This document shows, one piece after another, positions 41,731 to 61,178 of a stretch of 64,000 nt of DNA. Made by a program: the position numbers and the translations under genes. The stretch is from a phage. Under the pieces are notes generated by a model. It was not told the DNA's origin, searched no databases, and saw only the letters and a list, made by a program, of their open reading frames with translations. The DNA lies in NCBI GenBank assembly GCA_017822615.1, contig GCA_017822615.1_4530.1, one strand, 5' to 3'. The first letter of the stretch is position 1, and every line of letters begins with the position of its first letter.

Positions 41731-41768
41731 ATAAAAGAAAAGGGAACCTTTGCGGGTTCCCTTTTTAT
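41731..41768. terminator. bidirectional terminator at convergent junction
   Basis: GGGAACC-tttgcg-GGTTCCC flanked by A-run upstream and TTTTTATT downstream; between stop of ssb (+) and stop of 41768..44443 (-). Confidence 0.65.
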
Positions 41769-44443
41769 TAGTCGTAATATTTCAAACCTGTAATGAACTT
41801 CGATCCCCAATCCGCACTTGCGGCGGTGAACGTCAACATCCAAGTTGTAGCTGTACCAGTGAAGACCTCTCGTTGCACAGTACCATCAGTGTGGTAAATG
41901 TCCACGCCAGTATGTCCATTCTTAGGAATAGTGAAGGTAACAGCACTGGTAGTGTCTCGTGCATAAGAACAAACAAATGGTGTCCCAGCCCAAACTGGAT
42001 TTGTCATATCACCCATCTCAAGCTGTGGAACCCAAGCAATAAGACCTGCCGTACCATCTCCTGCGAAAGTGTCTGATCCACTTGCATTCAAAGCTATAAT
42101 CTCATAGGTTATAGATGCTTGTTTGGCAACTGTCACTTTGTGTAGAATTACACGATACCAACCATTCCCCATATCGATTATGTTTGCATCTGCACCTGTA
42201 AATGTTCCAGCTACAAGATCATAAGTCCCTTCGTTAATCTCATCTCCTGAAGTCAATTTGAGTTTCACTTTAGTGATCCCGTCTGGCTTCAAGAATACGG
42301 ATGCCGCCCAGTGCTTACCTGCTGTAATATCAGAAGCTGTATTCACTGCTGATAAAATATGTTGTCCTGAAGTTGTAGAAGGTGTTAACTTGTAAGTGTT
42401 AGCTGTAGTTCCAACCGGAGAGTTGATTGTTGATGCCGTGACTGTCAAGTTCGTCTTCAACCACGGGGAAGCTGTTGTCAAGTTATTGTTGATAAAGATA
42501 TGTGTACGGTTGGCTGCTACAACACGTCTACCTTGTGGAGTTGTACCAACATATTCTAAAGGTGCTACGGGAGCAGAACTCTCTGTAGGTACAAGGATAT
42601 CTCCAGAAGCCCTGGCATAACGGTTACTCCTGTTGACCTTTACATCCGCCGGAATAGTTTCTTGCGTCAAATCATAATCCATCACAATCACCACAGCATT
42701 CACTGTGAGATAAGAACTATCTTCGGCAGTTACCACACCTTGATAAGTTGCTCTACAACCGATACGACAACCTCCATCAGCAACCGCTGTAATAACGCCT
42801 GTAACGGGGTCAACTGTTGCTACCGTAGGGTCATTAGAGAAATACTCAACAACCATACCAGGTAAGCTTGCTGCTCCTGTTGGCGTTATTTCTGCTACCA
42901 TTGTTTGTGTTGTTCCTACATCCATCGCAGATAAGCTAGGGGTGTAAACACTCAATGTTGAAGCATATCCTCCAGAGGTATCTGATAAAGTTGTTCCTTC
43001 AGCGTTTAAGGCTGTCATACCTGCATCAAAACCACCTTCTGCATGGAAAGTCATTAAACCAGTAGATGATATTGTCATGTTTGCAGGGGCAGAAGAAGTG
43101 TATTTAATATTGAAAAGTTTGCCTCCTTCTGGGCTAACAGAATGTGTCAACTGTTTAGTTCCACCTACAATACAAATTCCTAAAGAATCTGTAGTTAAGC
43201 CTGTTGCCAGAATATCGCCCGTAATCACGGAGCTTGCTATTGGTGTGAATTTATTATAGTTTAGACCACTATTGAACAGATACGAGGCTTTCCCATCTTT
43301 CCAAATACCGGAATAATACATATCTCCATTATAAACGAAAAAGGTTCCTTGATAACCTAATTGGTTAGTAACATCCATATTCAGCGTATGAACGCTTGTG
43401 AGCTTGTTTATATCCCAAGAACCCACTCCTTCAGGTTTAACTGGTTTTCCCACTTGGAGTGGATCTCCGCTCGCAGAATCATACCCCAAACCTAAGTTTG
43501 CAGTGTAGTTCTTACCAATAGCCCACAAGGAATTATTGATCCCAACGAAAAAAGAGTGGCGGCTTGGTGGAAACTTCCATGTTGAGAAACCTGCTGCAAA
43601 GGTATCCAGTTTAGTGTAGGTTGTTTCTGTATTAGATCTAACATATAAGTAGTTTACTGTACCCGTGCCACCGGAGGTATCTCCTACAACTATTGTCTGG
43701 GAAACTGTATTGATGTAATCTTTGACATACACTGTTTCAGTAGTGGATATTGTGGCATTGACAAAAGCTGTTGTTGTGTTATTATTACCTGCTAAACCTT
43801 TACTAGCTCCACAAACACGCAAGGTTCCCACATTGTTGACATAAGAGCATTGGTTGTAACCTGCATCAAAAGCAACTGCTGCGCTTGTTATCTGACGAGG
43901 AGTAGAAACTTCGTTAGTAGTGCTTGCACCTAAACTACCTACTGTGTTTTGACCCGATCCATAAAGAACACCACTATTCATTAACCAGAGAGTATTGTTA
44001 TACCCTCCTTTAACCTCTTTAAGATTGGCTAAAGAAATAGTCCCTGTTATTACAGATGGAAAGCTGGTCCAGGTAGTTACACATGCATCCGTACCACCTG
44101 CTGCTATAGATCCTACCAACCCTGCTGTCAATCCTGAATATTGCCATCCCCCACTGTTAGTTTTAATAACAAAACAACGATCTGCGGTAAACACATCCGC
44201 TACTACAGTAGAAGCTAAGTGGAAATTATTGAATCGTGCACTACGAGTTCCATCTGCAATCTCACCAAAGAGGTTTGCGCCTTGAGTAAACAATCTACCA
44301 TCATTAAGCAAAATTGCTAAACTGCTGTTAGAATTACCAGCGTTATCTGGGTAATCTAAAGTGATTACTTTTTTAACAATACCTGCTGGCAGAGGAACGA
44401 CACCAGTGCTGGTCATAATAGTAAATATTGGAATTGGAAACAT
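41768..44443 (-). CDS. tail fibre-like structural protein
   Basis: 891 aa, G/S/T/N-rich, distal end of structural operon. Confidence 0.45.
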   Translation of the reverse strand: MFPIPIFTIMTSTGVVPLPAGIVKKVITLDYPDNAGNSNSSLAILLNDGRLFTQGANLFGEIADGTRSARFNNFHLASTVVADVFTADRCFVIKTNSGGWQYSGLTAGLVGSIAAGGTDACVTTWTSFPSVITGTISLANLKEVKGGYNNTLWLMNSGVLYGSGQNTVGSLGASTTNEVSTPRQITSAAVAFDAGYNQCSYVNNVGTLRVCGASKGLAGNNNTTTAFVNATISTTETVYVKDYINTVSQTIVVGDTSGGTGTVNYLYVRSNTETTYTKLDTFAAGFSTWKFPPSRHSFFVGINNSLWAIGKNYTANLGLGYDSASGDPLQVGKPVKPEGVGSWDINKLTSVHTLNMDVTNQLGYQGTFFVYNGDMYYSGIWKDGKASYLFNSGLNYNKFTPIASSVITGDILATGLTTDSLGICIVGGTKQLTHSVSPEGGKLFNIKYTSSAPANMTISSTGLMTFHAEGGFDAGMTALNAEGTTLSDTSGGYASTLSVYTPSLSAMDVGTTQTMVAEITPTGAASLPGMVVEYFSNDPTVATVDPVTGVITAVADGGCRIGCRATYQGVVTAEDSSYLTVNAVVIVMDYDLTQETIPADVKVNRSNRYARASGDILVPTESSAPVAPLEYVGTTPQGRRVVAANRTHIFINNNLTTASPWLKTNLTVTASTINSPVGTTANTYKLTPSTTSGQHILSAVNTASDITAGKHWAASVFLKPDGITKVKLKLTSGDEINEGTYDLVAGTFTGADANIIDMGNGWYRVILHKVTVAKQASITYEIIALNASGSDTFAGDGTAGLIAWVPQLEMGDMTNPVWAGTPFVCSYARDTTSAVTFTIPKNGHTGVDIYHTDGTVQREVFTGTATTWMLTFTAASADWGSKFITGLKYYD

Positions 44444-44452
44444 TTAAACCCT

Positions 44453-44481
44453 CCATAAAAAGAAAGCCCCTTTCGGGGCTT
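44453..44481 (-). terminator. hairpin terminator/attenuator between tail fibre genes
   Basis: AAGCCCC-tttc-GGGGCTT with U-run on minus-strand RNA (rc of CCATAAAAAGAA). Confidence 0.5.
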
Positions 44482-44484
44482 CTG

Positions 44485-46509
44485 TTATCGTGTTACAACA
44501 ACCATGTCCACGATATCACCCACACCAGGATACGTTAATTGCAAAATTGTTACTGCGTTAGCAGTAGTTGCTATTTCTGTATCATTTAGTGCTCCATAAG
44601 ACGCATCTAGTGTAACCGTGTGTCCCGTTGTATCTTGAATCAAATAAATCATTGCTGAAAACGCTTTAGGTTTTGTAGAGCCAGTGACACCAGGCCATGC
44701 TCCAACTGTCAGAGCGTCAGTTACTGTAACAAAATACATATTGGAAGTTCCAGAAGGAGTCCAAGATGCTCCAGAGTTGGCAGTAGTTGTTTCAAGTTCC
44801 ATGAAACCTGCTGTAACTCTAGTTGGTGTTATAGCTTCCGTAGGATCTGATCCTGATATTTCGATCCAATTTCCATCAGACCTACCATACGTCAAGCCGT
44901 CTTGAGGGGCTTCTGGTATACTAGGAAGAGTGCCTATAAGCGTCCACGTAGAAGAATCTGTTTTCTTAAACACTGCTCCAGTGGTAGTATTGAAGGCGTA
45001 ATCATTGATAACACCGTCTCCTGCGACTGGATTAGTTGTTGCTACAAACCACTGTGCGCCGTCCTTACCGTTGGTCCCATCAGTACCGTTGGTTCCGTTT
45101 GTTCCAGGATCACCCTTATCTCCTTTATCCCCTTTTTCACCTTTGTCGCCTTTAATACTTCCCATGTCAACAAAAGATGCGGAATTGGTGTCTTGATCGT
45201 AGGTATAGATGTAAAGATTACTAGTGTCTTCAGTTAAGTAAGCATCACCATAGTTATTGTAAACAGGGAGAGCTTCACTGTTCGGAACATGACCTTTAGC
45301 TGTAATTGATGTTCCTCCAAGACTGCCAACATTCATCCATTCCGTAGCATCTTGGACCCAAACATATAAATCATTATTAATTTTATATGCGTCACCTACT
45401 TCTCCAGTCGGAGGAAGTTCAGCTTCGCTGTTCAGAACCCCGATAATCTCTAAGCCTGATCCTGTTGCACCCACTGGTCCTTGTGGACCTAGTTCACCTT
45501 GTGGACCTCGCTCTCCTTGATCACCCTTGTCTCCTTTTGGACCTTTAAGTGAGGCAATAAAATCTACTTCTGTCCCTTCATTACCAGCATCCAGCCAACT
45601 TTGATATGCAGATTTCCCTTCATCTCCATCTGTTCCATCTAGACCGTCTTTTCCTGCCTCGCCTTGTGGACCTTGAGGACCAACAATATTACCCATGTTG
45701 ACCCAAGCTGTCCCATTAGAGACATAAAGATTACCATTGATAGAATAAGCTTGGCTTACGTTTTCAGAGGTAGGTTGTGGTAAGTTACTTGTAGAAGGCA
45801 AATCTCCACGATAATCAAAACCGTTGGCGTTAACACCAGGTGCTCCCTGTGGCCCTGTAGGACCAACATCGCCTTTATCACCTTTTATAGAGGTAAGGAA
45901 ATCATAAACAGATCCTGTATTACCATCTGCCAACCATACCTCGTAAGCTGATTTACCTTCTGGCCCAAGAGAAGAAATAAGTTTCCAAACAGAACCATCC
46001 CAAGCGTAGATTACATCACCTACGATATAACCATCCCCTGCAACGTTACCTGTGGATGGTAGTTCACTAGTACTTGCTAATGATCCTTTAATATTAAGTT
46101 GAGCACCAGTATCCCCTTTCAAAGAGGCAAGCCACTGTGCTTCTGTTCCAACAAAACCATTATCAAGTGCGATCTGATAAGCCGATTTACCAGCTTCAGG
46201 TATTGTTTCCGACAGATCATCAATTTGTTGCTGCATTGCCGTAAACTTGGCATTGATAATTGCTATATCATCAGCGGTCCCAACACTTTGCCATGCAAGG
46301 GAAGAAATACCACCTGTGGTGGCTGGCGTAGAGTTTGCTGGAACCACTTTAGGAAAAGTTCCTTTCCATTGGTAATAATTCCCTTCTGCTGCTAACAGCA
46401 AAACTTCACGGGAATTACGTAATGTAAAACCTGCCTCAAAGCTGCGACGTTTTCGATAAGTAGCTTCTACCAGATCGGCTATCGCACTATTAGGTCTTGT
46501 TAAATTCAT
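44485..46509 (-). CDS. tail fibre protein with collagen-like Gly-X-Y repeats
   Basis: 674 aa; GDKGDVGPTGPQGAPG, GPQGPQGEAGKDGLDGTDG, KGPKGDKGDQGERGPQGELGPQGPVGATG, KGDKGEKGDKGDKGDPGTNGTNGTDG; three repeats of GKSAYQ/E..W...G....DF..S.KG. Confidence 0.6.
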   Translation of the reverse strand: MNLTRPNSAIADLVEATYRKRRSFEAGFTLRNSREVLLLAAEGNYYQWKGTFPKVVPANSTPATTGGISSLAWQSVGTADDIAIINAKFTAMQQQIDDLSETIPEAGKSAYQIALDNGFVGTEAQWLASLKGDTGAQLNIKGSLASTSELPSTGNVAGDGYIVGDVIYAWDGSVWKLISSLGPEGKSAYEVWLADGNTGSVYDFLTSIKGDKGDVGPTGPQGAPGVNANGFDYRGDLPSTSNLPQPTSENVSQAYSINGNLYVSNGTAWVNMGNIVGPQGPQGEAGKDGLDGTDGDEGKSAYQSWLDAGNEGTEVDFIASLKGPKGDKGDQGERGPQGELGPQGPVGATGSGLEIIGVLNSEAELPPTGEVGDAYKINNDLYVWVQDATEWMNVGSLGGTSITAKGHVPNSEALPVYNNYGDAYLTEDTSNLYIYTYDQDTNSASFVDMGSIKGDKGEKGDKGDKGDPGTNGTNGTDGTNGKDGAQWFVATTNPVAGDGVINDYAFNTTTGAVFKKTDSSTWTLIGTLPSIPEAPQDGLTYGRSDGNWIEISGSDPTEAITPTRVTAGFMELETTTANSGASWTPSGTSNMYFVTVTDALTVGAWPGVTGSTKPKAFSAMIYLIQDTTGHTVTLDASYGALNDTEIATTANAVTILQLTYPGVGDIVDMVVVTR

Positions 46510-46571
46510 TTATCTCTCCTATCATTAGACCATTCTATTGGAAGAAGAGGGGGAATCCCCCCTCTATTCCA

Positions 46572-49500
46572 TTAGGTTGTTGGCACATCTACTACTGGCG
46601 TTGGGCGAATAACCGCAGTATTACCTACAGAAACATTACTGGAATCATTAGGTATGGTTTTAATTCTAACTCCAGCACTTGTAGGCGTTACAATTGGATC
46701 TGCAATGTCTATTTTAACTGGGTTAGTCCACGTATCATTATCTTGATAAGGTGCACGAGTAATAACTGTGTCCAAATCTGCTCCACCTACGCCAGCACCA
46801 GGAATACGGATACGTGTCCCTGCTGACAGAGGGTAATGATACAACCAAGAAGCATTTGTTGCTGTCCCGTTAGGAGTCAAGTTCTGTGTCAGGAAGGTAT
46901 CTCCTGCCTGTGTAGCTCGAATACCGAAAGCTGGGATATCTGGAATATATGCCCCACTTGTTGTTACAAGGAAGAACGTATTATCCGCTTTGACTATCAT
47001 ATCACCTTTGTCAAACTCTTTCCCTGTTGGGAAATGCATTCCATCAATGTTTCGACTAGGATTAGGCTCTAAGTAATAAACTTTGCCCGTTGTCCCTACA
47101 ATAGCTCCAATACCACCTGCGATATTGGTATACATATTAGCTTCAACATTACAGTTGACACGATGAATATCCGAGTAACGGCAACGGCTCCACTGTGGAC
47201 GACCAGTAACCATCGTCTTGCCATCTGGGTAACAGTTTACGTTAACCATTTCAAGAACAGATTTTTCTCTACGGAAGAATCCATCATAAAATGTCCCTGG
47301 ACCAGATTCAGGTTGACCAACACAATCGAAGATATTACAGGTGATGTTAGACATTGAAAGCCAAGAAGCTATACCGAACAACTGCAATGCAGCGCAACGA
47401 ATATTTTCAAAGCTAACTCTGTTTTCATAACCTGGCCCAGCGGAAACTCCCGCAAAAACACGCCCAGTTTTGGTGTGAATGTTACGAACAGAATAGTTAA
47501 AGCATGGATTTGAAGGTCTGCCCTGTGCCGGAACTACCGGATTACCCTCTTCGTCCAGAACTGCGTTAGTTCCCCACTCCAAGTAAATCATACGGATATT
47601 ACTTGCAAGTGTGCTACCGTCTGTTTTAGGCTCTCCATAAACACCATCAATCGTAAAGTCTTTACTTCCATACATTACAACTGCGCCAGTTGCCAAACCT
47701 GTCCCAACAGATACGGTTTGATCTGGATCGCCATGAATGTTTTCGATAGAAATATTACGACCAACTTCTACGTGGACAATCTGACGGCAACGTTTTGCAA
47801 AAACGTTACGAATTGTAATGTTCTTACAATATTGATCATCAGGGATTCCGTAACCATATGGTCCTTTACCAGCTACACCGATACCGATACCCCAGTTCGA
47901 CAGAGGAATAGGAGCATTAGTTCCATCGATATTAGACAGGTAAATATTCTCAATCACACAACCATCGTCATAATGTTTATTGATGACGTTCAGTTCTATT
48001 GCATCACCTTGCATGTCCATGAAGGTAAGGTTACGGAAGACACCACGTGTTACTGGTTCCCCTGTTCCTTGTTGAAGGATGCCGTATAACCCATTTTTAA
48101 AAGTACAATTATCAATTTCAAAAGTACCTGATATTGGGTTGCCTTGGAATACCAAGCTACCAACTTGACCCGCGCGAGGAGCACCGTCCCACAAACAATC
48201 GAACATGCGCACAGCACCACCCCAATACATAACACGAGAGTTACGGAAAGTTGTGCCTTCTACTGTAGCATTTTGCACACGATAGTCGCGTTGACCACGG
48301 AACACACCCCCACGCAAAGTGATACCTTGAATATCAAAAGAGCTTGTCGTGAAAGTCATATCGCAACCGTAAGCATCGAGAATCTTGCTTTTCGAAGCTT
48401 TTGCTGCTAACAGTGCCGCTTGGAAAGCTGCTTCTGGTGTGGTATATGCTGTTGTGTTGTTAGCAAATTCTGACAAGTAGACAACATCGAATAAATCGTT
48501 GTATGTTCCACCACGAGGGGTTAACAGTCCTTCTGTATTGGTCAGAACCCATGCATTTGGACCTAATCCACCGCTTGTCTCCAATGTATCGGAGGCCAAA
48601 ATACTTTTTGGTAAACTTCCAGCCCAACGATAACGACCAGCGCCACGTCCAATCGTCTGATTTTTAGCTGTCAGAGTTACATTATTACCAAAGCTTGTAG
48701 GCAAATGAACAAACTGTCCACGCTCAACAGCCAGTGCAGAAAGGTCTACAGATCCTCCAGAATAAGTCATTACTCCAGAAACAGACAAGGATGTTAAAGT
48801 GCCTGTAATGTTAGGAGGTAATGTGTAGGAAGACTGCGCTACCGGATCATACAGAGCTTTAATCCCTGTTAACGATTGACCTGCTGTTGCGTAAGCCACC
48901 TCATCATCTAACAAACCATACTTACGAGCAATAGTTTGCAGAGGGACTTTATCCATGCTTTCTGTTAGTTCTTCCGTTTTTGTTTCTAAACTAACAAGAC
49001 GGTTCTCTAGATTAGGATCTGTATCTGCTGAAGCTACGATTTTGCCAATATAAGCAAAAAGTTTGTTTGGCAGTCCTGTTGCAGGATCGTGTCCCAAAGG
49101 TTCAGATAAGATGATCTTACTATCTTCTATACGGAAAGCTTCCCCCAGAACCTGAATAACACCATTGATCGTAACAATAGCACTATCAAAGATGTAAGGA
49201 GGACTAATTACTGTTTCATAACCAGTTGCACCAGAATATACCCAAGGGGTGACTTCTGTTGCCAATTGTTCTGTCTTCAGTCCCCACAATACCCAGTTGT
49301 TATCTCCTACTGGAGTCCCTTGCATAGGGATTGGGTTAACCAATGTAGCGTTAGGGGCATAGTAATAACCGCTCAATACTCCATTCTGGAAATAACGAAG
49401 TTGGTTAAAAACTGTTTCGTTTGTGCCTTGCGCCCAATCCAATGGGCTTTTAAAGAAAAAGTTGTCAACAAGGGCTTTTCTCAGGGTTGGTATCAACCCT

Positions 49501-49625
49501 GATTCTGTTTCAATACTCTCTGTAGCACTTCCATTAATAACATCATGGAGTTGGTTAGATGAGAAAATAACCAGGTCTACGCCCTGTTCGAGAGACGTTG
49601 CTGGATATGTTGGGAATGTTGCCAT
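46572..49625 (-). CDS. tail fibre/tailspike with beta-helix-like (pectate-lyase-type) central region
   Basis: 1017 aa; repeated short segments such as NITIRNV...ISIENIHG...FTIDGVYG typical of right-handed beta-helix. Confidence 0.5.
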   Translation of the reverse strand: MATFPTYPATSLEQGVDLVIFSSNQLHDVINGSATESIETESGLIPTLRKALVDNFFFKSPLDWAQGTNETVFNQLRYFQNGVLSGYYYAPNATLVNPIPMQGTPVGDNNWVLWGLKTEQLATEVTPWVYSGATGYETVISPPYIFDSAIVTINGVIQVLGEAFRIEDSKIILSEPLGHDPATGLPNKLFAYIGKIVASADTDPNLENRLVSLETKTEELTESMDKVPLQTIARKYGLLDDEVAYATAGQSLTGIKALYDPVAQSSYTLPPNITGTLTSLSVSGVMTYSGGSVDLSALAVERGQFVHLPTSFGNNVTLTAKNQTIGRGAGRYRWAGSLPKSILASDTLETSGGLGPNAWVLTNTEGLLTPRGGTYNDLFDVVYLSEFANNTTAYTTPEAAFQAALLAAKASKSKILDAYGCDMTFTTSSFDIQGITLRGGVFRGQRDYRVQNATVEGTTFRNSRVMYWGGAVRMFDCLWDGAPRAGQVGSLVFQGNPISGTFEIDNCTFKNGLYGILQQGTGEPVTRGVFRNLTFMDMQGDAIELNVINKHYDDGCVIENIYLSNIDGTNAPIPLSNWGIGIGVAGKGPYGYGIPDDQYCKNITIRNVFAKRCRQIVHVEVGRNISIENIHGDPDQTVSVGTGLATGAVVMYGSKDFTIDGVYGEPKTDGSTLASNIRMIYLEWGTNAVLDEEGNPVVPAQGRPSNPCFNYSVRNIHTKTGRVFAGVSAGPGYENRVSFENIRCAALQLFGIASWLSMSNITCNIFDCVGQPESGPGTFYDGFFRREKSVLEMVNVNCYPDGKTMVTGRPQWSRCRYSDIHRVNCNVEANMYTNIAGGIGAIVGTTGKVYYLEPNPSRNIDGMHFPTGKEFDKGDMIVKADNTFFLVTTSGAYIPDIPAFGIRATQAGDTFLTQNLTPNGTATNASWLYHYPLSAGTRIRIPGAGVGGADLDTVITRAPYQDNDTWTNPVKIDIADPIVTPTSAGVRIKTIPNDSSNVSVGNTAVIRPTPVVDVPTT

Positions 49626-49628
49626 TAA

Positions 49629-49964
49629 TTACCCCTTATTCTGTGTACGTTTAACTATGTCATCTAGCATCATTTGGATAGTCGCATTCTTGAGGTCCAT
49701 AATCTTTTCAATTTTTTGCTCAAGGGTGTTATTATTTGCCATTAATGTAGAGTTAATTTGATTTAGCATCTGGGTAAGTTCGGCTTTAGTTGCATAAGTT
49801 GATTCAACAAAGACCAACTTCTTCTCTAGCTCTCGACTTTTCTCCTCCATTTCCTCAAGATCAGAGCCGAATTTATCCATTTTTTGTTTGAAAAAGAACC
49901 AGATGACTCCGATTAAAGGGATTATTGCATCCTTTGCAAGTCCCCATGCTTCTTGAAATTCCAT
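49629..49964 (-). CDS. small membrane-anchored coiled-coil protein
   Basis: 111 aa; N-terminal hydrophobic segment then coiled-coil heptads. Confidence 0.4.
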   Translation of the reverse strand: MEFQEAWGLAKDAIIPLIGVIWFFFKQKMDKFGSDLEEMEEKSRELEKKLVFVESTYATKAELTQMLNQINSTLMANNNTLEQKIEKIMDLKNATIQMMLDDIVKRTQNKG

Positions 49965-52222: not shown

Positions 52223-53710
52223 TTACACTCCATACTCGTAAGAAATGTTATCAAGGTCAAAAGAAGGGACAACATTATAAGCAGGAACTATATTATTCTC
52301 TGTATATTTACTGTCATCCTCAGTATTAAGTTTAACATAAACACGAAGAGAAGTCAAGCGTCCAAAAGCAAGTGCTGCATAAATAACACCTTTGATTTGA
52401 TCGTTCGTTACTGAAGAACCTAATTCAAAGTAAGCTTGCAGGTTTTGTAAAGCTTCTACGATGTTTTGTTTTTCTGTTCCACTTAAAGTTGTTCCGTTGA
52501 CAGTTTGATAAACAAGTTTTACAGAATACATAGCAGAAGCACCAGGAGAGAAGCGAATAATTTCTTGTCCTCCATCTTCTGTTGTAACTGTTATGTTAGT
52601 TGTTCCGTGTGTCAAAGTGTTGATTGGTTTGGTTTTATAAATAACATTTGCAATTTCTTCTGCACTGCCACCATAAACTATAGTCTGGAAAGTCATAGCT
52701 GGAGCGTGTTCTTGATCATGTAACGTAGGGTTATCATAAATCTTCACCTTAGTAACACCATCTGTAAGCAACAGAGCTTTCACAATAGCTGCTCGTGTCC
52801 CTGCGTTAGCTTCATCAACGTTGTCATTGAAACGAGAGCGGAATTCTGCGTCTGTCTCAACATCTCGACCAGGAGAAAATGAATAGAAGTTACCACTGTC
52901 AAGATAACCTGTAAAGGTAGAAGATATCCCTGTAATAGACTCCACACCAACAGGATTGTATCCTTTCTCTGCTGCAACTACCGGAATCTCACTCCATTTG
53001 GTTCCAACCGGAACACTAGCATAAAATTTAATAGGAGTTACCAGCCCCACTGGAGTATCACTGGTTAAAGAAGTAAAACCAATTGATAAGTTACCTGAAT
53101 CAGAAAATACAAGACTACGATCAGCTTCTGTTAAATTTGCCTTGATAAAAGTTTCAAGATCGGTTATAAATGTAGAAGAACCAGGTGCAAGTGTTTTACT
53201 GTTTAGTCCTCCATCGACCGCACTTTGTGCATAAAAAGTAATATTTGGAACACCTGTAGCAGTTGCATTAGCACGAGAGATTTGATAAGCTGCAATCTTA
53301 GCATTCAACATAGTTGGTGTGCTAACATAGTAGTTCATATCACTATCAGAGTTGAAATAAATATCTGTGCCTAGCTCATAAGTCCAAGCTGCTTTGTTAT
53401 TACTCTTAACATATGCATAACCTGTACTTGCTGCTGCACCTGCTCGATAGAAACCGCGTTTAGAAAAGATTTCATCAAGATAAATACCTTCTGCACCATC
53501 CAGTGTTTGAGTATTATAAACACCTTGCATACCTTCCCACAATGTGTAATCTGTGTATGCAATTATTCTAAACAGTTGTCCGATCACAGTATCTTCCGAA
53601 GTGGCTGCATCTGCACCAAATGTGTTTTTTACTGCTGTCATGTAGTTGTTTAAAACATCGTCAAAAGTCGGGATTACAAATCCCGCATCTGTCAAACCAT
53701 ATTCGTCCAT
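52223..53710 (-). CDS. baseplate wedge protein (gpJ-like)
   Basis: 495 aa; N-terminal PTFDDVLNNY...GQLFRIIAYTDYTLWEGMQGVYN pattern resembles Baseplate_J family. Confidence 0.45.
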   Translation of the reverse strand: MDEYGLTDAGFVIPTFDDVLNNYMTAVKNTFGADAATSEDTVIGQLFRIIAYTDYTLWEGMQGVYNTQTLDGAEGIYLDEIFSKRGFYRAGAAASTGYAYVKSNNKAAWTYELGTDIYFNSDSDMNYYVSTPTMLNAKIAAYQISRANATATGVPNITFYAQSAVDGGLNSKTLAPGSSTFITDLETFIKANLTEADRSLVFSDSGNLSIGFTSLTSDTPVGLVTPIKFYASVPVGTKWSEIPVVAAEKGYNPVGVESITGISSTFTGYLDSGNFYSFSPGRDVETDAEFRSRFNDNVDEANAGTRAAIVKALLLTDGVTKVKIYDNPTLHDQEHAPAMTFQTIVYGGSAEEIANVIYKTKPINTLTHGTTNITVTTEDGGQEIIRFSPGASAMYSVKLVYQTVNGTTLSGTEKQNIVEALQNLQAYFELGSSVTNDQIKGVIYAALAFGRLTSLRVYVKLNTEDDSKYTENNIVPAYNVVPSFDLDNISYEYGV

Positions 53711-53952
53711 TAGTCATCCTCTTTGGTAGATTGTGATCTGCCCCAGCGTAAATCAATAAGATTTTTCATGAGGCGAGAAGGAGTTATCATGAAAACAAAA
53801 GCCCAACCCATCCATTCAGGAATTTCTTTTTCTATTCCTAAAAAGATAAACATGCCTGTCATAACCGACATGCCTACAGCGTTCCAGACTTTCGTAGAAC
53901 TGACTTTATTATCAGGATATGTACAGAACATACCTATTAAAAATTTTCTCAT
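53710..53952 (-). CDS. small membrane protein
   Basis: 80 aa, two TM segments. Confidence 0.4.
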   Translation of the reverse strand: MRKFLIGMFCTYPDNKVSSTKVWNAVGMSVMTGMFIFLGIEKEIPEWMGWAFVFMITPSRLMKNLIDLRWGRSQSTKEDD

Positions 53953-54098
53953 AGTGCGTTCTCATTACTTTTTAAATCACGATATGCAGCTAATTCCCCA
54001 AGGTCTACAGAACCCGCTGAATGCACAAGTACAGCAGCACTAAGACTAATGGCAGTAGTACCTGGGGCAATACCGCCTTGGGAGAACATTTCGTTCAT
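53949..54098 (-). CDS. small hypothetical protein (49 aa)
   Basis: not in track; AGAGG RBS, ATGA overlap with downstream gene. Confidence 0.3.
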   Translation of the reverse strand: MNEMFSQGGIAPGTTAISLSAAVLVHSAGSVDLGELAAYRDLKSNENAL

Positions 54099-54148
54099 AA
54101 GTACCTCTTTGTTTTTCTAAGAAACCCCCTCCGAAGAGGGGTTTGTTA

Positions 54149-56131
54149 TTAAGATCCTGAAGACTTAACCCATGTAAAGGTGTCTCCACGATAAATAACT
54201 TCGTATCCGAGAGTAGTGTCGAAATACTTTTGCCATGCGTAAGGCTGGCTAGGTCTATTGGCTGTAGTACCGCCTTCGTTTAGCCCGTAACTGAAGCGTC
54301 CGGTGCCGTTTGCGCTAAAGAACTCACCTCGCACGGTATCGATACTCCAAGTATTTAATAGCTTCTTGCAAATCATCTTACCTGTGGCAGTGCTACGCAC
54401 TTCAGTAGTACGCGCCTCCAACATATCAGTAAAGATGAAATTCATCTGATTGCCTGATGTGTTGTAGCAGGTAAATTGCATTTCATCTGTACCATAACCA
54501 GCCTGAATAGTTACGGCAATAGGCCTGGTTGCATTGGTATTACGCACCTCATTACACCAGCGCGAGTTAGTAACTGTACCTGATGCAGTGAACTCCTGGT
54601 ATATCTTAGAGTTCGTGCGAATGCCTGCTGCTGCCGGGTTATGAATCTCAGGGTAAGTAAACTTACTACGGTCATACGTTATGTTGTTGAAAGTATAATT
54701 GCCGACATCTCCCGATATATTGTTTGTAATGGCAATAGGGTGAGTAAGCGTAGTACTACGGTTAATGATGTTTAGGTTATCAATTGTGATACCACCTGCA
54801 GTACCCCCTGCATAGTTATTGTAAATACCAATAGCTACACCATACGGGGAACTGGTATCACCTACCTGGTTACAGTTCAAACTTGTCATATTACGGATAT
54901 GGAACTTACAATCATCTCGCCACTTAACAGTTTGCAGTTCCTGATTCTTACTGTTACGCCCATAAACGGAATCAATAGTAATATTGCCGGACACGCCCCC
55001 GTCACCACGGATTTCTATACAACGTTGGCATCCAATAGATGATACGGACCCTACGGTAACGTTTATAGGTTGTGATACACCAGTAAGTTGGTGTACTGCA
55101 AACAGGAGTGCAGGCCCAGCGTTATTAACACCTCGTACAGAACCTATTACTAAATCAATGATAAATTCAGAAGATACGTCAGGCTCCACGTCAATAGTAG
55201 CCCACGGACCTGCCGAAGCTCCTTGAATACTAACTCCTACACTATCTTCGATATATAAACCACGGCATGAGATAACACTTATACCTTGTCTACGAGAACG
55301 GGTGTATACACCAGTACCGGTAATTGCACCTCCGTACTGTTGGTCGTCGTTAACGAACCAAAGGATACTATCGCCCCAACAATAACTGATGTTTGGTGAA
55401 TCAATCACAAGGTTGCTACTGTTGAAGTTGCGAATACCATAACCCCATTCACCTGTAGTCCCTGTATGTGTTTCAACATCACCAACAATAACAGGGTTAA
55501 TTATTTTTGAGTTATGAGCATAGTAAGCGTCTATGATGACATATCGCCCTGATTCTACTGCATCCATTTTTAAAGACGCACCAGCAGAAAATTCGATGTC
55601 TATATTTTGGCGGGTCATTCTCAGCCCCATAGGATATGTTTCACTCCTGACAGGGTCCAAAGTATCCACGAGAACAATTCTATGCTCTCCTGGCGGAATG
55701 GTTACTTTATTAGGGGTCAATTCATATGCGGTTTTCAGAAGAGGCATGATGTCGTCTCCGCTTTTTACAGCCCCCCAATTTCTTAAATCGTCGATATCAA
55801 ATCCATTAAGTAATCCAACGCACTGCCACGAGTCGTCAGGGGAGGAACCGGCACCTACAGTTATAGTGCCGTATTTGGGTGTGTAATAATAACCGTTTGT
55901 TGTGTTTTTTAGAGCTGATACACCCTCAGTTGCGCTTCCTCCTGATAAGAAAGATCCTTCAGACTTAACTAATTGGAGTGGTTTTAGTGTATTATTAGCC
56001 CAGCTTCCAACCGTGTCAGTAAGAAAGTTGGAAACTGTGCTTTTAACAGTCTTATCAGGTTGGTCTAAAACCAGGTAATCAGAACCATTAACTTTTGATG
56101 TTTCGGGTAAATTAGTAATTGTAGTTGACAT
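54149..56131 (-). CDS. tailspike-like protein with beta-helix signatures
   Basis: 660 aa; IDLVIGSVRGVNN...INVTVGSVSSIG...ITIDSVYGRN repeats. Confidence 0.5.
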   Translation of the reverse strand: MSTTITNLPETSKVNGSDYLVLDQPDKTVKSTVSNFLTDTVGSWANNTLKPLQLVKSEGSFLSGGSATEGVSALKNTTNGYYYTPKYGTITVGAGSSPDDSWQCVGLLNGFDIDDLRNWGAVKSGDDIMPLLKTAYELTPNKVTIPPGEHRIVLVDTLDPVRSETYPMGLRMTRQNIDIEFSAGASLKMDAVESGRYVIIDAYYAHNSKIINPVIVGDVETHTGTTGEWGYGIRNFNSSNLVIDSPNISYCWGDSILWFVNDDQQYGGAITGTGVYTRSRRQGISVISCRGLYIEDSVGVSIQGASAGPWATIDVEPDVSSEFIIDLVIGSVRGVNNAGPALLFAVHQLTGVSQPINVTVGSVSSIGCQRCIEIRGDGGVSGNITIDSVYGRNSKNQELQTVKWRDDCKFHIRNMTSLNCNQVGDTSSPYGVAIGIYNNYAGGTAGGITIDNLNIINRSTTLTHPIAITNNISGDVGNYTFNNITYDRSKFTYPEIHNPAAAGIRTNSKIYQEFTASGTVTNSRWCNEVRNTNATRPIAVTIQAGYGTDEMQFTCYNTSGNQMNFIFTDMLEARTTEVRSTATGKMICKKLLNTWSIDTVRGEFFSANGTGRFSYGLNEGGTTANRPSQPYAWQKYFDTTLGYEVIYRGDTFTWVKSSGS

Positions 56132-56139
56132 TTTTACTC

Positions 56140-58293
56140 CTATATATAAAATTTTTGTGTTGTTACCAAATCTTCTCCAGATTTAGTAGCTAATGTAATT
56201 CCACTTATGGTAGCAATCTCAACATTTGCTTGTTTAAGAGTGATATCTTGCAAATAACAATTCAAAGGCACATTACCCATATAGAAAACTTGGGATTGAG
56301 AATTAACTACCGTGATGGAATCATGCATTATTTGAGGATAGGCCCATATATATTGTGTAAGCCCATTGAACTTATTGGCGTTCAACACTATATTACCTAT
56401 AATCATCTTCCAAAGATATGTGCGGTAGTTTGATTTAGGATCAAAGCCATACAAAGGTGCAAGAGTAGCATCTGGAACAAAACCTGAAAGGTAGTGAATA
56501 TCAGAATATTCAAAACCTAATTTTTCATGTGGTATAGTAATTGCATCAAATGCTTTCATCATCTTACCTTCCAGAAGCCAGTCATAACACTCTGAACAGT
56601 AAAAATCAAAAGCTTCAGGAATGTAGTAATCAGACGGGAAGTTAACTTTCTCCATCAAACCGTTGCCGATAATTGATGGCAAGAACGGAAGCAATGTTAC
56701 CTTGGCTCCTGGGTAAGTTGCTCTAGTATCTGTTGCAAACTTTGTAACTCTTAATCCTAGTTTACGAGACAAAAATGCATAATATTCGTCAAACGGCGTT
56801 CCTGTTTTATAATTATCTATTGTTCCTGCATCTTGTGCAAATAAACCTGTTTCTGTGTTGAATGCCAGTTTGGTAGTGTAATCATATATGCAAGGCATTT
56901 TACTTGCTGTATTATACCACCACCAAGGCTCACCAATTTGAATGACAACTGGAATATTATTAGCTTGCGAAATAGATGCTATTTTATTAATAACATTTTG
57001 CAAATATTCCATACCTTCGTCAATAGTTGGAGACAACACATAACTAGGAGGTTCATACCCTGTTGCTGCAAGAGCATCGTTCCAATCATGCTGGACCCAT
57101 TCTACAGGACAAACTGTGCTCATCAATTCAAAACTTAAAGAGTTCATTATTGTGTAGCCCTTCTCGTTTGCTATAGAATGGAAGCTGTTAAGCCAAGCTT
57201 CTGTAGCCGGATTCAGGAAAACAGATTTATTTAAAGCCCAAGATGTTCCATTCCATGAGAACTCATAATAGTGAGACATTCCGTTATAATGGTTAATCAT
57301 CCCACGATAACCTAGTGCATATGTATTATAAATAACTCTCTCTGGAGTCAGGTTATACATATCATCATAAGATGTGCACATGCGAATATCATGTTCAGGC
57401 TGGACAAGGTTGCTGACTTTCATCATACTGTAACCAGAGGTAGGTTCAAGAAGAGTGAAAGTAAACCAAGCCTCTTGACTGTCAATAGGTACAACCTCTT
57501 CTATTTCTTCATACCTTGCTGTAATCAAAGAGAAGAAAATATTATCTACAGCACTCATATCCAAAGGAATATCATTATTAGGGCCAGAAAAGATATTACC
57601 AAAATCTAACTTGATTGTAGCTGTTTTACCATCTTCTGAAATATCTGAAGCGTAGAATCCTAAACTGACATAATGAACACTTTTATCCAGGAGAGTTACA
57701 GTCAAAGTCGGCACCAAAGGTTCTTCTTTAAAACCTGGCATGTTTTGACTAATTTCCATTTTAAACCAAAGTTTCTCTGAACTTAAATCTGTGTGGGGTA
57801 AATACCCAACACCTTTATGGTCATATTTGTCAACTGTGCTCCAGATAACCCCTGCCAAACCTGCTGTTGTTCTGTTTACAAATCTTGCAGTAAAAGAGTC
57901 TCCATGAGATACAATAGAACAACTTTCCGTTGCTTGAGAATCTATTGTCCAATACATAGGAGAGAACATTTTAACGTCTTTTGTAGTCCAAGTTATTGGA
58001 GTAGTATTTTCTTGGATAGTAGTTATAATACAATTGATGGTTGTTTCAACCATCATGTTATTTTGACTAATCCCTGAAACTTGGAGGGAGAAGTTAAGAT
58101 CTATTGAGTTCTTTGGTCGTTCAAATACTTCAACCACAATGGTAGCAGAATCAGCATCATCAGGGAACACAAGTGTTCCCGATTTTGCAATATAATCTCT
58201 ACCAGCGACTGCTGTTCCATCAACAGTCGTGTAGTTAAATGAACTCGCATTTACTCTCTTGTCTCGCGTGACAGTAAATATAGCTTGTTTCAT
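56140..58293 (-). CDS. large structural/tail-associated protein
   Basis: 717 aa, aromatic-rich, within structural operon. Confidence 0.4.
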   Translation of the reverse strand: MKQAIFTVTRDKRVNASSFNYTTVDGTAVAGRDYIAKSGTLVFPDDADSATIVVEVFERPKNSIDLNFSLQVSGISQNNMMVETTINCIITTIQENTTPITWTTKDVKMFSPMYWTIDSQATESCSIVSHGDSFTARFVNRTTAGLAGVIWSTVDKYDHKGVGYLPHTDLSSEKLWFKMEISQNMPGFKEEPLVPTLTVTLLDKSVHYVSLGFYASDISEDGKTATIKLDFGNIFSGPNNDIPLDMSAVDNIFFSLITARYEEIEEVVPIDSQEAWFTFTLLEPTSGYSMMKVSNLVQPEHDIRMCTSYDDMYNLTPERVIYNTYALGYRGMINHYNGMSHYYEFSWNGTSWALNKSVFLNPATEAWLNSFHSIANEKGYTIMNSLSFELMSTVCPVEWVQHDWNDALAATGYEPPSYVLSPTIDEGMEYLQNVINKIASISQANNIPVVIQIGEPWWWYNTASKMPCIYDYTTKLAFNTETGLFAQDAGTIDNYKTGTPFDEYYAFLSRKLGLRVTKFATDTRATYPGAKVTLLPFLPSIIGNGLMEKVNFPSDYYIPEAFDFYCSECYDWLLEGKMMKAFDAITIPHEKLGFEYSDIHYLSGFVPDATLAPLYGFDPKSNYRTYLWKMIIGNIVLNANKFNGLTQYIWAYPQIMHDSITVVNSQSQVFYMGNVPLNCYLQDITLKQANVEIATISGITLATKSGEDLVTTQKFYI

Positions 58294-58301
58294 TTTACCC
58301 C

Positions 58302-61178
58302 TTACTCGGTAACGTCCACACTAATGTTTGCCATTGTCAAAACAGTAAGTGCAGGAATATTGCTCGAATCCAAAACAGGTAATGCATTTTGGGGATTAAG
58401 TTTTTTGTATAAGGCATACAACCCAAAACCACGTAACAACTCTCCGGCGTGGAAGCCAAAGAAGACTCCGTTATCACTGTCTGGTCTAGGAGCAGCACTC
58501 CAACAACCATTCATAACGTGATTAGGACCAAGAACAATATAATTTTCCTGAATAAGTTCAAAACAGCGATCTGCTACTATTTTAATGTTAGGAATTTCTG
58601 AATCATATCCAGCCATCCCCATTATAGCACATCCCGCCATAAAGAGCGCAGACATGTGACTTGTAAAGTCATCTACAGGCGCAGCCACTTCTCCGTTGGG
58701 ATAAAATATTGTTGGTGTTCTTCCTTCGTTGTTATCTTGGAACCACTTCAGATAATTGATCCAGTTTTTACAAACTGTTAAAAGTTTTGCAGGAACTTCT
58801 GCTCCTCGTTGCTTCAGTTCGTATACTGTATGACACGCACAGAAGAATGCTCGTGCTTCATAACCATCCCAAGCTTTATCGTTCCAATGATACATTGTGA
58901 ACTCATTCTTGTTTCCATATTTATGAGCATCCCAACGATCCCAAACATAAGCTTGTGCCATTGGCCCAGGCATCACAGGGGCAAACTTATTATAAAACCA
59001 CATTTGTGAATCATATAAAAAGTCTATACTGTTGTTCATACGAACCCAGTCAATATCTCTCCCTTTAAAACAATATAAGGATGGGTATTGATAACCTGGG
59101 TAAGGAATACCACGCCAACCATCATACAATGCTGTGTTAGGATCACTAATATTGGAAAATGGAATGATTCCTGGAGTATAATTCAAACTATCAAGTTTGT
59201 AGTCCAGTATCGTACAATCTCCAAGTTTTGCTGTATAAGGCTTTTCAGACGAAACTGTAACCCTGAAGTACATTGTGTAGTCATCGCCAGTGGCTGAAGA
59301 ATACAAAGATGGGATATCGTTAACGCAATAAAAGTCGATTGCCCCTGTCAAACCATTTGCAGGTTCAGAATCCAATGCAATGTTAATCTGATCAACAGTA
59401 GTCAGGTTTATTGACGAAGGTTTTGTCTCTGTGTCATTGTGATTAGGTTGCCAAGTACTTAATTTGAAATCAGCAGGACTTAAAGCTTTAGTAACCCATG
59501 CAGAATTTGTTTTTTCTAACATGGCCCACCATCTCCAACCTGCGGAATCCGTAATAGTGATGTTAAAATCATCTGCGTATGAACGATACGTAATAGATTT
59601 TAAATTGGTTGTTTTAGTTGGTGTTAACCAAAACCCAATAGTAAAACCACCATCTGAATCCATATTAGCAGAAACTATCTGATCACTATTTGTCCCAGCA
59701 ATACCAGTTGCATATTTATATTGTATCACAGTATTGCTTCCCCAGTCAACAATGATTCTAGGTTCAGCAATAATATATACACCACCTCCAGGAGGTTCAG
59801 TGCGCATAAAACTGGATAAAGGTATATCCATCTTAGTCATATTAGCTGCACCAAGAGGTAAGCCACAACGATATGTCACTGTGTCTGTTTCACTCTTAGT
59901 CTTGCTTAATTCTAACTCTGGACGGAAAAGAACACCTTCCCCTGCATCATCTACGCCTTGAAACTCAATACGCAGTTTTGAATTCTGATCCACTCTGAAC
60001 CAAACTGCTTGTTGTTCTAGAGTTGTTTGTGCTGCAACATCTTGGCGAATTACTGTGTATCCTAACTCGTCACGAGAATATTTAGGTATTGCTGTAGATG
60101 GGTATGAGTAATCATACGAGATACCATCTGTAAAAGGAATTATTGCTGTCGTAGATCTACGGAAGAATTTATCAAACATATCGATGTTTGAGTAGTCTTG
60201 ACACAACAATAAAGAAGATTGCCAGCAAAGCCAGTATTTTCTCTCTCCTGTGATTTGATACATCAAGTAGTTTGCATCACACCACCACGTTTCAGCATCG
60301 GAAGCATTATCTTGATAACCTAACTCTACCGGAACGTTTACAGGACGGTTATGCCACATCTCATTACGCTTAAGCAGATATCCACCGTGTTCTACAGGAT
60401 TGCATGTAGCGTAGTTGAATTTATAGTCCCCGTTCACAGAAGCATTTTTAAGTTGCACTGTTCCATATTCTGCGAAGCTGTGCCCTGTAGATAAAATGTT
60501 ACCGTCCCAATCAACTTTACGTCCTAGACGATCTATAATCCATTCAACGTCCCACTGATCTCCATATTCTTTCCAGTTGGTTGAACCATCTGGGTTAGTT
60601 GCATAAACTGTTGCGTTAACGGAGTTCCAACCAAGATTGCCATTGAAAGCAAACCAAGCTTTATCTAAGTATTCCCCCCAATGCGGTGCACCTTTAGGAA
60701 TAACAGTCCTTCCGTTAATCCAAGTCATCATGCTACCTTTGAACCCGCCGTGCGTAGGATACCCATCATCTGTGAGAGGGTAATGTGCTAAACGTGGTTC
60801 TTTACCATTGATGATCCAGTTGGGACGATATTTAGCTGGAGGATCAGGAATAGGTTGGCCCCCGAAGAAGTGATCTATATAGGCTTGCCAATACTTCTCG
60901 GCAGATTCAAGATATTTTTTATCCCCTGTAGCCAAATATGCATAAGCAAAACCAGTGATAAGCACAGATTGACCTTCGGTAGTAGCGTCACCGTTTGGTT
61001 GCCCTTCCTGCGCTGTCCAGTTAATAAAGTGTCTGTTGTTCGCCAATACGTTTTGTGGGTTGATAATGTAATGCTGAACCGTAGGATCTATGGTAAGCCC
61101 AGTATTTCTTTCCAAAAACTGAACCAACCCTTCAATCAACTGAAACGTGTTGTCAATATTGTGCTTAACTCTTGACAT
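58302..61178 (-). CDS. large tail-associated protein, Trp/Tyr-rich (possible carbohydrate-active domain)
   Basis: 958 aa with many W/Y and acidic residues; no motif assigned. Confidence 0.35.
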   Translation of the reverse strand: MSRVKHNIDNTFQLIEGLVQFLERNTGLTIDPTVQHYIINPQNVLANNRHFINWTAQEGQPNGDATTEGQSVLITGFAYAYLATGDKKYLESAEKYWQAYIDHFFGGQPIPDPPAKYRPNWIINGKEPRLAHYPLTDDGYPTHGGFKGSMMTWINGRTVIPKGAPHWGEYLDKAWFAFNGNLGWNSVNATVYATNPDGSTNWKEYGDQWDVEWIIDRLGRKVDWDGNILSTGHSFAEYGTVQLKNASVNGDYKFNYATCNPVEHGGYLLKRNEMWHNRPVNVPVELGYQDNASDAETWWCDANYLMYQITGERKYWLCWQSSLLLCQDYSNIDMFDKFFRRSTTAIIPFTDGISYDYSYPSTAIPKYSRDELGYTVIRQDVAAQTTLEQQAVWFRVDQNSKLRIEFQGVDDAGEGVLFRPELELSKTKSETDTVTYRCGLPLGAANMTKMDIPLSSFMRTEPPGGGVYIIAEPRIIVDWGSNTVIQYKYATGIAGTNSDQIVSANMDSDGGFTIGFWLTPTKTTNLKSITYRSYADDFNITITDSAGWRWWAMLEKTNSAWVTKALSPADFKLSTWQPNHNDTETKPSSINLTTVDQINIALDSEPANGLTGAIDFYCVNDIPSLYSSATGDDYTMYFRVTVSSEKPYTAKLGDCTILDYKLDSLNYTPGIIPFSNISDPNTALYDGWRGIPYPGYQYPSLYCFKGRDIDWVRMNNSIDFLYDSQMWFYNKFAPVMPGPMAQAYVWDRWDAHKYGNKNEFTMYHWNDKAWDGYEARAFFCACHTVYELKQRGAEVPAKLLTVCKNWINYLKWFQDNNEGRTPTIFYPNGEVAAPVDDFTSHMSALFMAGCAIMGMAGYDSEIPNIKIVADRCFELIQENYIVLGPNHVMNGCWSAAPRPDSDNGVFFGFHAGELLRGFGLYALYKKLNPQNALPVLDSSNIPALTVLTMANISVDVTE

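Follow-up and report, generated by a model that had tools for sequence, protein, structure and literature searches.

Do six very large open reading frames (ORFs) lying close together in a phage genome encode as many fibres and spikes, and is any part of them new? The ORFs in question lie at 41768-61178 of a 64,000-nucleotide (nt) stretch of phage DNA (NCBI GenBank assembly GCA_017822615.1, contig GCA_017822615.1_4530.1), referred to as the window, and encode proteins of 891, 674, 1017, 660, 717 and 958 amino acids (aa). An initial annotation had described at least five very large fibre or spike proteins, two with beta-helices, as a multi-receptor-binding-protein adsorption apparatus. All six ORFs were recovered at its positions on the minus strand, with ~98% DNA identity to annotated genes of Phapecoctavirus. 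The explanation set out here, which we regard as highly probable as a whole, is that the locus encodes an adsorption apparatus at the baseplate periphery of a phAPEC8-type myovirus (Phapecoctavirus, Stephanstirmvirinae) built on the phi92 design. What the comparisons point to as new is the body of one exchangeable tailspike, which is present in no deposited phage genome.

The 19.5-kb region was found to share ~98% (97-99%) DNA identity with dozens of deposited Phapecoctavirus genomes, in which its genes are annotated; phAPEC8, Ro121c4YLVW, UP17 and SKA64 are among these relatives. The best matches cover only ~90% of the region. Identity of 97-99% spans 41700-54072 and 56013-61200 in full, and the part not covered by the relatives, 54073-56012 (~10% of the region), is the body of the 660-aa spike. 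The module swapping that the initial annotation had proposed to look for among related phages was thus found in this gene. Apart from the spike body, the gp141-gp151 order of phi92 is kept gene for gene, with 60-87% protein identity (tblastn; Table 1).

The short N-terminal anchor of the 660-aa spike is conserved, and what follows it is exchanged. The anchor opens 58 of the 120 matches listed, where it is joined to 47 other body families; among these matches are the phAPEC8 endosialidase and bodies with GDSL, GDPD, pectate-lyase and peptidase-S74 domains. In the relatives the same slot holds proteins of 762 aa (Ro121c4YLVW), 849 aa with a GDSL domain (SKA64) and 921 aa (the endosialidase of phAPEC8). 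The swap is bounded by breakpoints at 56013/56014 and at ~54138-54072. DNA homology to the spike of a small myovirus (93.3% over 1,877 nt) starts at 56014, where Phapecoctavirus homology stops, and this donor-type homology passes the spike stop codon to reach 54138, inside a terminator-like hairpin. The GC content is 0.434 in the spike body versus 0.345 in the anchor. The junction of anchor and body was searched for an extended recombination motif, such as the 44-nt motif that PMC10408124, on Escherichia coli (E. coli) tailspikes, reports for other genera, and only 2-3 nt of microhomology were found.

No record of the spike body was found in the INPHARED phage collection, where the best near-full-length match was a Vibrio phage at 38%. 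In a protein collection from metagenomes and read archives, the body was found behind other adaptors at 59-96% identity. A small myovirus whose baseplate is of the Pam3/E217 type carries it behind a Tail_spike_N adaptor (P0001; 96% aa, 93% nt), a longer spike (P0005) combines it with a CBA120-type module, and an E. coli prophage adjoining the bio operon has it behind a P22 head-binding domain (P0007, of an 81-member cluster; 76% aa). A related spike was present in only one of 5,426 complete E. coli genomes (CUWW11, in a prophage). Records of the exact chimera are confined to two Logan contigs from read archives, one of which was examined (run SRR10098751), and a 95%-identical copy, ended by the contig edge, lies on a 149,792-bp metagenome scaffold of the European Nucleotide Archive (ENA) with syntenic downstream tail genes. 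The best explanation of these matches is that an in-frame swap at 56013/56014 brought in the body, drawn from a repertoire of spike bodies common to unrelated myoviruses and P22-like prophages. Conserved anchors with horizontally exchanged receptor-binding domains, and a conserved terminator 3' of the exchangeable receptor-binding proteins (RBPs), are described for E. coli tailspikes in PMC10408124; the window adds to this modular exchange a new body in the Phapecoctavirus slot.

A trace of a further tailspike gene may lie directly behind the spike gene, in a 49-aa ORF. Its counterparts are 102 aa long in Ro121c4YLVW and 114 aa in SKA64, and the window copy is shortened by an internal deletion. 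The 102-aa copy of Ro121c4YLVW is 76% identical to aa 385-462 of P0005 and 42% to aa 230-300 of the 1017-aa spike of the window. From these matches the ORF appears to be the relic of another tailspike gene that once stood in tandem with the present one.

Folds were assigned from AlphaFold2 models for the 660- and 958-aa proteins and from sequence homology alone for the 1017-, 717-, 674- and 891-aa proteins. The model of the 660-aa spike (31 homologues) is almost all beta-strand, with a predicted local distance difference test (pLDDT) score of 86.4 and a predicted template modelling (pTM) score of 0.80. Residues 1-52 are disordered (pLDDT <50), as expected for a docking peptide modelled without its partner. 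Foldseek against the PDB placed the model among beta-helix tailspikes and depolymerases with probability 1.0, including CBA120 TSP3 (E=1.9e-8), the tailspike of cyanophage Pam1, Fri1 gp49, Depo32, DpK2 and the P22 tailspike, as well as alginate epimerases and GH28 polygalacturonases. The sole PDB match by sequence was gp22, a tail fibre protein of crAss001 (E=4e-7), and more distant homologues carry PF13229 or PF12708. The body at 54149-56012 is accordingly modelled as a right-handed parallel beta-helix with a small C-terminal domain and is a candidate polysaccharide depolymerase, in line with the beta-helix that the initial annotation had read from its short strands. Residues E228, D254, D314 and E316 are invariant across the 31 homologues and are candidate catalytic residues. 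Most likely, the spike binds and cleaves a particular O-antigen or capsule.

The second beta-helix predicted in the initial annotation, that of the 1017-aa protein, was also supported. Residues 426-1000 align to the crystal chain of the phi92 gp150 colanidase (6E0V, E=1.5e-79), and aa 502-662 match WcaM, a protein of the host colanic-acid cluster (E=1e-25; 90 bits against an equivalog cutoff of 808). The Pfam Beta_helix match is weak and sub-threshold (E=0.0099), and the best PHROG is phrog_6117, 'colanic acid degradation' (E=2e-282). A gp150-type N-terminus (aa 1-215, 75%) is followed by an inserted module (aa ~226-400) and the beta-helix body (33% to gp150). The inserted module is absent from phi92 and homologous to N-terminal domains of CBA120 tailspikes and G7C gp63.1. 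By this homology the protein belongs to the phi92 gp150 colanidase family, and HHpred on the near-identical ABPW7 protein led to the same conclusion (PMC11126041). The low identity of the body to gp150 and a WcaM score far below the equivalog cutoff would fit a spike aimed at another exopolysaccharide, with 'colanic acid degradation' a transferred label. We consider this rather unlikely, since colanic acid is linked to the spike twice independently, by the WcaM match and by gp150, which PMC13450770 cites as a biochemical colanic-acid hydrolase, and since three central blocks ('ILQQGTGE', 'GDAIELNV' and 'NWGIGIGVAG') are strongly conserved between the two bodies. Kinship between the two beta-helix bodies of the window (the 660-aa spike and aa 426-1017 of the 1017-aa protein) was also considered; profile-profile comparison (hhalign) gave a probability of only 12.8%, no sign of a relationship, and the two are independent beta-helix lineages.

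The 674-aa protein is, by its domain layout, a genuine fibre: it starts with a Tail_spike_N adaptor (aa 12-77), continues with collagen-like triple-helix repeats and a foldon-like segment, and ends in a tip related to the 'putative tail fiber protein' chain of PDB 9CUY. Over a short stretch, residues 503-552 match T4 fibritin as it occurs in engineered chimeras (1v1h; spike constructs tagged with a foldon), which suggests that a foldon-like trimerisation element adjoins the collagen-like repeats. The Tail_spike_N domain of this fibre and the CBA120-type module of the 1017-aa spike are adaptors of the branched spike complexes of Ackermannviridae, which makes branching plausible here.

Among the smaller genes, the initial annotation had missed a short tail fibre of 353 aa and its 181-aa assembly chaperone, which belong to the same structural block. 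The tip of the short fibre matches the short tail fibre chain 9cuy_c, and homology indicates that this fibre and the Caudo_TAP chaperone are a genuine sixth receptor-binding unit, homologous to fibre III of phi92. By analogy with phi92 gp147, the short fibre would carry out the final, irreversible binding. A tblastn search of the annotated phi92 region with the 181-aa chaperone returned no match.

The virion to which these genes can be compared is that of phi92, for which the 2026 cryo-electron microscopy (cryo-EM) structure (PMC13450770) gives three sets of fibres per sixth of the baseplate, borne on the wedge protein gp145. The L-shaped fibre I has an arm to which no protein is assigned and a tip at which gp143 is inferred to sit; fibre II is unassigned; and fibre III is gp147. 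With only three sets per sixth, six large genes do not mean six fibres.

This bears directly on the 958- and 717-aa proteins, which the initial annotation had counted as fibres in error. The AlphaFold2 model of the 958-aa protein is globular (pLDDT 84.9, pTM 0.81) and has no shaft, so the elongated shape of a fibre was not found. It forms an (alpha/alpha)6 barrel, a fold like that of glycoside hydrolases (GH), built from helical hairpins at aa 3-104, 293-329 and ~700-924 and interrupted by two beta-sandwich inserts. Its best structural neighbours are single-domain enzymes at 9-14% identity, and no Pfam, NCBIfam or PDB match was obtained by sequence. Members of its family, 43-55% identical, occur in phages and prophages of Enterobacter, Pseudomonas, Stenotrophomonas and marine bacteria and share more than 100 invariant residues, the wrong pattern for a receptor-binding tip. 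The model thus argues that this protein, annotated as 'tail protein' or 'long tail fibre', is not a fibre. In PMC12695924, the 958-, 891- and ~681-aa proteins were named TfpL, TfpM1 and TfpM2 purely from Pharokka annotation.

The domains of the 717-aa protein likewise indicate that it is not a fibre. It combines Calx-beta (E=8.9e-11) with NCTSP_N (PF23844, E=2.9e-16) and a TIM barrel (PF23845, E=3e-79), and matches N4 gp64 (9lc0_M, E=3.5e-30) and N4 gp65 (9lc0_I, E=1.1e-12) in the PDB. In N4, gp64 and gp65 form a six-fold non-contractile sheath, in which gp65 binds the receptor (PMC13434306). A possible link to Campylobacter phages through the name 'non-contractile tail sheath' was followed up; a literature search returned nothing relevant, and the name comes from N4 gp65. 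Given the myovirus baseplate context and the myovirus taxon, this label on the 717-aa protein is most likely transferred from N4-like phages. According to Sellner et al., N4, Vequintavirinae and phi92-like phages all need wecB and nfrB, that is, the NGR glycan and not the enterobacterial common antigen (ECA). The S5F legend of the BASEL study gives homology to N4 Gp64 for the conserved 'glycan deacetylase lateral tail fibre' of these phages, with a predicted poly-N-acetylglucosamine (poly-GlcNAc) deacetylase domain. The N4 matches, the BASEL match and the need for wecB and nfrB together identify the 717-aa protein as the known conserved candidate module for the NGR glycan.

Natural fusions connect the two proteins with each other and with the baseplate. 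In P0226 a region like gp141, the phi92 homologue of the 958-aa protein, is followed in one chain by NCTSP_N and the TIM barrel, that is, the 958- and 717-aa proteins are fused. P0206 carries a P2 gpI baseplate-wedge domain at the N-terminus of its gp141-like region, and P0213 has, behind such a region, a C-terminal glycine-rich domain of a type seen in a neighbouring gene of the tail-fibre locus. These fusions are 'Rosetta stone' evidence for the wiring of the apparatus, from which we infer that the 958- and 717-aa proteins make a conserved arm that is attached to the wedge and directed at a glycan. Probably the two are a conserved scaffold and glycan module, not independent fibres. The literal reading of the locus, in which all six large proteins are separate fibres or spikes and each is an independent receptor-binding protein (at least six distinct appendages), has the labels on its side, as all six are called 'tail protein', 'tail fibre' or 'tail spike' in PHROGs and deposited records, and the Tfp names agree with it. 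Set against the globular 958-aa model, the TIM barrel of the 717-aa protein, their fusion into one polypeptide in P0226, the invariant residues of the 958-aa family and the three fibre sets of phi92, it is very improbable. Only the 674-, 1017- and 660-aa proteins have a fibre or spike architecture, which falls short of the five at first proposed.

Whether the module is catalytic is a closer question. Both proteins could be catalytically dead scaffolds or lectins in which the enzyme folds are kept for structure or binding only. No Pfam or NCBIfam enzyme family was matched by the 958-aa protein, no catalytic residues can be assigned in either protein, and N4 gp64 and gp65 are structural sheath subunits, with gp65 binding the receptor. 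The barrel segments of the 958-aa protein hold many invariant acidic and aromatic residues (D64, E68, D294, E296, D333, D336, D750 and E913, with several W and Y), and a deacetylase domain is predicted for the gp64-like protein in the S5F legend. Both argue for activity, and we give the inactive alternative serious, though somewhat less than even, weight. Returning to the conserved glycan module, a more specific proposal is put forward tentatively: the two proteins would be the arm of fibre I (or II) in phi92-type virions and an active complex processing the NGR glycan, on which the exchangeable spike would dock via its 39-aa anchor. If this is true, the core of the 'Swiss army knife' is an enzyme complex and not a fibre.

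The 891-aa protein is harder to place on the virion. It consists of an RCC1-like beta-propeller (aa ~1-400), Big_2 immunoglobulin (Ig)-like domains (aa 411-587) and a head-spike-fibre domain of the gene transfer agent (GTA) type (aa 644-814). The last matches GTA_spike_fiber (NF048003, E=2.6e-20, 73.7 bits against a curated cutoff of 36) and, in the PDB, the head spike fibre of RcGTA (6tb9_F3, E=5.7e-14). The protein is absent from Justusliebigvirus (PMC12695924) and is probably an adhesin specific to Phapecoctavirus and its relatives. It could instead be a capsid-vertex or other head or neck fibre, a decoration adhesin whose gene lies on the margin of the tail module. The head-spike-fibre domain would suit such a place, as would the Ig-like domains, which are typical of both head and tail decoration proteins (phrog_215, 'structural protein with Ig domain', is classed under head and packaging); Pfam recognised no tail-anchor domain at the N-terminus, and the gene is the last of the block, with its own terminator-like hairpin. 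It nevertheless lies beside genes for spikes and fibres, on one strand with them, and has 'tail protein' as its best PHROG, and the phi92 authors note a likeness to a head spike protein in their tail-fibre candidates gp140 and gp151 too (PMC13450770), so the domain is not diagnostic of location. We therefore hold the head or neck position to be possible but doubtful. A literature search for virion proteomics or structure of Phapecoctavirus returned nothing relevant.

Base composition and gene spacing differ between the distal and the conserved genes. The GC content of the distal genes is 0.42-0.434 versus 0.345-0.40 in the conserved parts (0.345-0.382 for the anchor, the 717-aa gene and the wedge genes; window mean 0.393), which is consistent with specificity modules drawn from a different gene pool. 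One terminator-like GC hairpin stands 3' of each distal gene; in between, the conserved baseplate genes overlap or follow one another closely. The hairpin behind the 660-aa spike lies directly 3' of its stop codon and partly within the transferred cassette. Overall, 21 terminator-like hairpins were counted against a shuffled expectation of 13.4 +/- 4.0, a modest excess only.

The following working of the apparatus is proposed from the ORFs, their synteny and homologies, the 660- and 958-aa folds, the breakpoints and the natural fusions; virion positions, enzymatic activities and receptors are its conditional part. A conserved layer, common to all relatives, would comprise the wedge (495 and 209 aa), the short fibre with its chaperone (353 and 181 aa) and the pair of 958 and 717 aa, the latter as a baseplate-proximal arm and module aimed at the conserved NGR glycan. 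A specificity layer would comprise the 1017-aa colanidase-type spike, the 674-aa collagen-like fibre, the 891-aa adhesin and the 660-aa exchangeable spike. Spikes and fibres would first bind surface polysaccharides, which the two beta-helices would probably cleave (colanic acid by the 1017-aa spike, some O-antigen or capsule by the 660-aa spike). The 717/958 module would then engage the NGR glycan, like N4, and the short fibre would bind the core region of the lipopolysaccharide (LPS) and set off baseplate rearrangement, as proposed for phi92 gp147 and rV5-like phages. Host range would be retuned by replacement of the spike body behind the fixed 39-aa anchor. The multi-receptor-binding-protein reading of the initial annotation holds in this form, as an apparatus with candidate depolymerases like those of phi92 and phAPEC8, and fails where every large ORF was to be a fibre or spike; its broad capsule or O-antigen range is plausible by homology.

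Several points weigh against this explanation. The Foldseek TM-scores of the 660-aa model are low (0.28-0.38) despite the probability of 1.0, a Pfam search of the protein gave no family at E<=0.01 (Beta_helix and Pectate_lyase_3 included), and the choice of its catalytic residues is a guess based on which acidic positions are invariant. With a body only 33% identical to the characterised colanidase, the colanic-acid specificity of the 1017-aa spike is not certain. The phi92 map does not model gp141 and gp142, nor did its authors name them as fibre-like candidates, so the position of the 958/717 pair follows only from gene order and the natural fusions. The 891-aa protein, with its head-spike-fibre domain, may not be a tail component. 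The apparatus of this phage is known here from genes and predicted folds alone.

The features are listed in Table 1. The baseplate context is of the myovirus type: besides the Baseplate_J wedge it has a central spike protein that combines an N-terminal domain with a beta-helical trimerization domain. Upstream of the 958-aa gene, the 157-aa 'tail fibre protein' is, on gene order alone, probably the equivalent of phi92 gp140. It was also compared, as a possible split equivalent, with the P2 gpI wedge domain fused in P0206, and BLASTP gave nothing meaningful. An apparent strand conflict between phi92 gp153 and the window ORF 40818-41705 was dropped, as there is no homology between the two. ARAGORN found no tRNA genes in the 64-kb window. 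The sign of the GC skew flips near 6 kb and near 41.7 kb, coinciding with coding-strand switches.

Table 1. Features of the adsorption locus and its surroundings (positions in the window; identities to phi92 proteins from tblastn where so marked).
Feature	Position	Strand	Remarks
157-aa 'tail fibre protein'	61178-61651	minus	phrog_9017; stop overlaps start of 958-aa gene
958-aa protein	58302-61178	minus	phi92 gp141 homologue, 83% (tblastn)
717-aa protein	56140-58293	minus	phi92 gp142 homologue, 77% (tblastn)
660-aa tailspike	54149-56131	minus	phi92 gp143 (endosialidase) slot; only aa 1-40 kept, 95% (tblastn)
N-terminal anchor of 660-aa spike, aa 1-39/40	56013-56131	minus	95-100% identical in Phapecoctavirus and phi92 gp143 alleles
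Exchangeable receptor-binding body (predicted)	54149-56012	minus	phi92 gp143/endosialidase slot
49-aa ORF	53949-54098	minus	directly 3' of exchangeable spike; decayed copy of a CBA120/Kuttervirus-type tailspike N-terminal adaptor ('MNEMFSQGG...')
Baseplate wedge pair	51591-53710	minus	495 aa, Baseplate_J-like, gp145 (80%); 209 aa, gp146 (87%)
353-aa short tail fibre	50520-51581	minus	phi92 gp147 ('fibre III'), 75% over aa 1-267; tip differs
181-aa tail-fibre assembly chaperone	49974-50519	minus	Pfam Caudo_TAP; gp148 by position
80-aa protein			phi92 gp144 (tblastn)
111-aa protein			phi92 gp149 (tblastn)
Smaller tail genes among the large ORFs	49629-49964, 49974-50519, 50520-51581, 51591-52220, 52223-53710, 53710-53952		
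1017-aa tailspike	46572-49625	minus	phi92 gp150 homologue, N-terminus 75%, body 33% (tblastn)
674-aa tail fibre	44485-46509	minus	phi92 gp151 homologue, 60% (tblastn)
891-aa protein	41768-44443	minus	only aa 411-587 match 202-aa phi92 gp152, 62% (tblastn)
Terminator-like GC hairpin	54126-54141	minus	3' of 660-aa gene
Terminator-like GC hairpin	46550-46562	minus	3' of 1017-aa gene
Terminator-like GC hairpin	44463-44482	minus	3' of 674-aa gene
Terminator-like GC hairpin	41738-41765	minus	3' of 891-aa gene

For phi92 and its relatives a 'multivalent adsorption apparatus' or 'nanosized Swiss army knife' has already been described, the former reportedly by Schwarzer et al. in 2012. The general finding of several receptor-binding proteins, depolymerases included, has been textbook knowledge for the phi92/phAPEC8 family since 2012, and the window changes nothing in it. 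What it adds is a tailspike specificity not represented in any deposited phage, with an in-frame breakpoint between the 39-aa anchor and the body that is usable for engineered spike swaps in Phapecoctavirus therapy candidates. The folds and fusions of gp141 and gp142 are moreover candidates for the unassigned densities in the 2026 phi92 structure, and relate the conserved layer of the apparatus to the NGR glycan pathway, which N4 shares.

With phi92 (Justusliebigvirus) the window shares the gene order, the identities to gp141, gp142, gp145, gp146, gp147 and gp151, a gp150-type spike and the 39-40-aa anchor. It differs in that the slot holds a beta-helix spike and not the endosialidase gp143, that the gp150 homologue is 213 aa longer owing to the CBA120-type adaptor insert and has a diverged body, that the 891-aa propeller, Ig and GTA-fibre protein stands in place of the 202-aa gp152, and that the tip of the short fibre is different. 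Compared with phAPEC8, Ro121c4YLVW, SKA64 and UP17, only the spike body is unrelated.

The modular E. coli tailspikes of PMC10408124 have in common with the window the conserved anchor, the swapped beta-helix body, the presence of one body both in lytic phages of differing morphotype and in a P22-like prophage, and the terminator after the RBP gene; the junction differs, with only 2-3 nt of microhomology against the 44-nt motif. The branched complexes of CBA120/Kuttervirus and of G7C share Tail_spike_N adaptor modules with the 1017- and 674-aa proteins, whereas the anchor of the exchangeable spike is a peptide specific to Stephanstirmvirinae and neither a Tail_spike_N nor a P22 head-binding domain.

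The 717-aa protein shares the TIM barrel of N4 gp64 and the N-terminal domain of gp65 (PDB 9YF4, 9YF5, 9YFT and 9LC0), and the need for wecB and nfrB is common to both groups of phages. N4 is a podovirus with a six-fold sheath round the tail tube, whereas the window belongs to a contractile-tailed myovirus that has both domain types in one chain, together with Calx-beta. The 958-aa protein, finally, resembles the (alpha/alpha)6 barrels of GH8, GH105, GH76 and GH88 in fold, but is only 9-14% identical to them, and its barrel is split by the two large beta-sandwich inserts.

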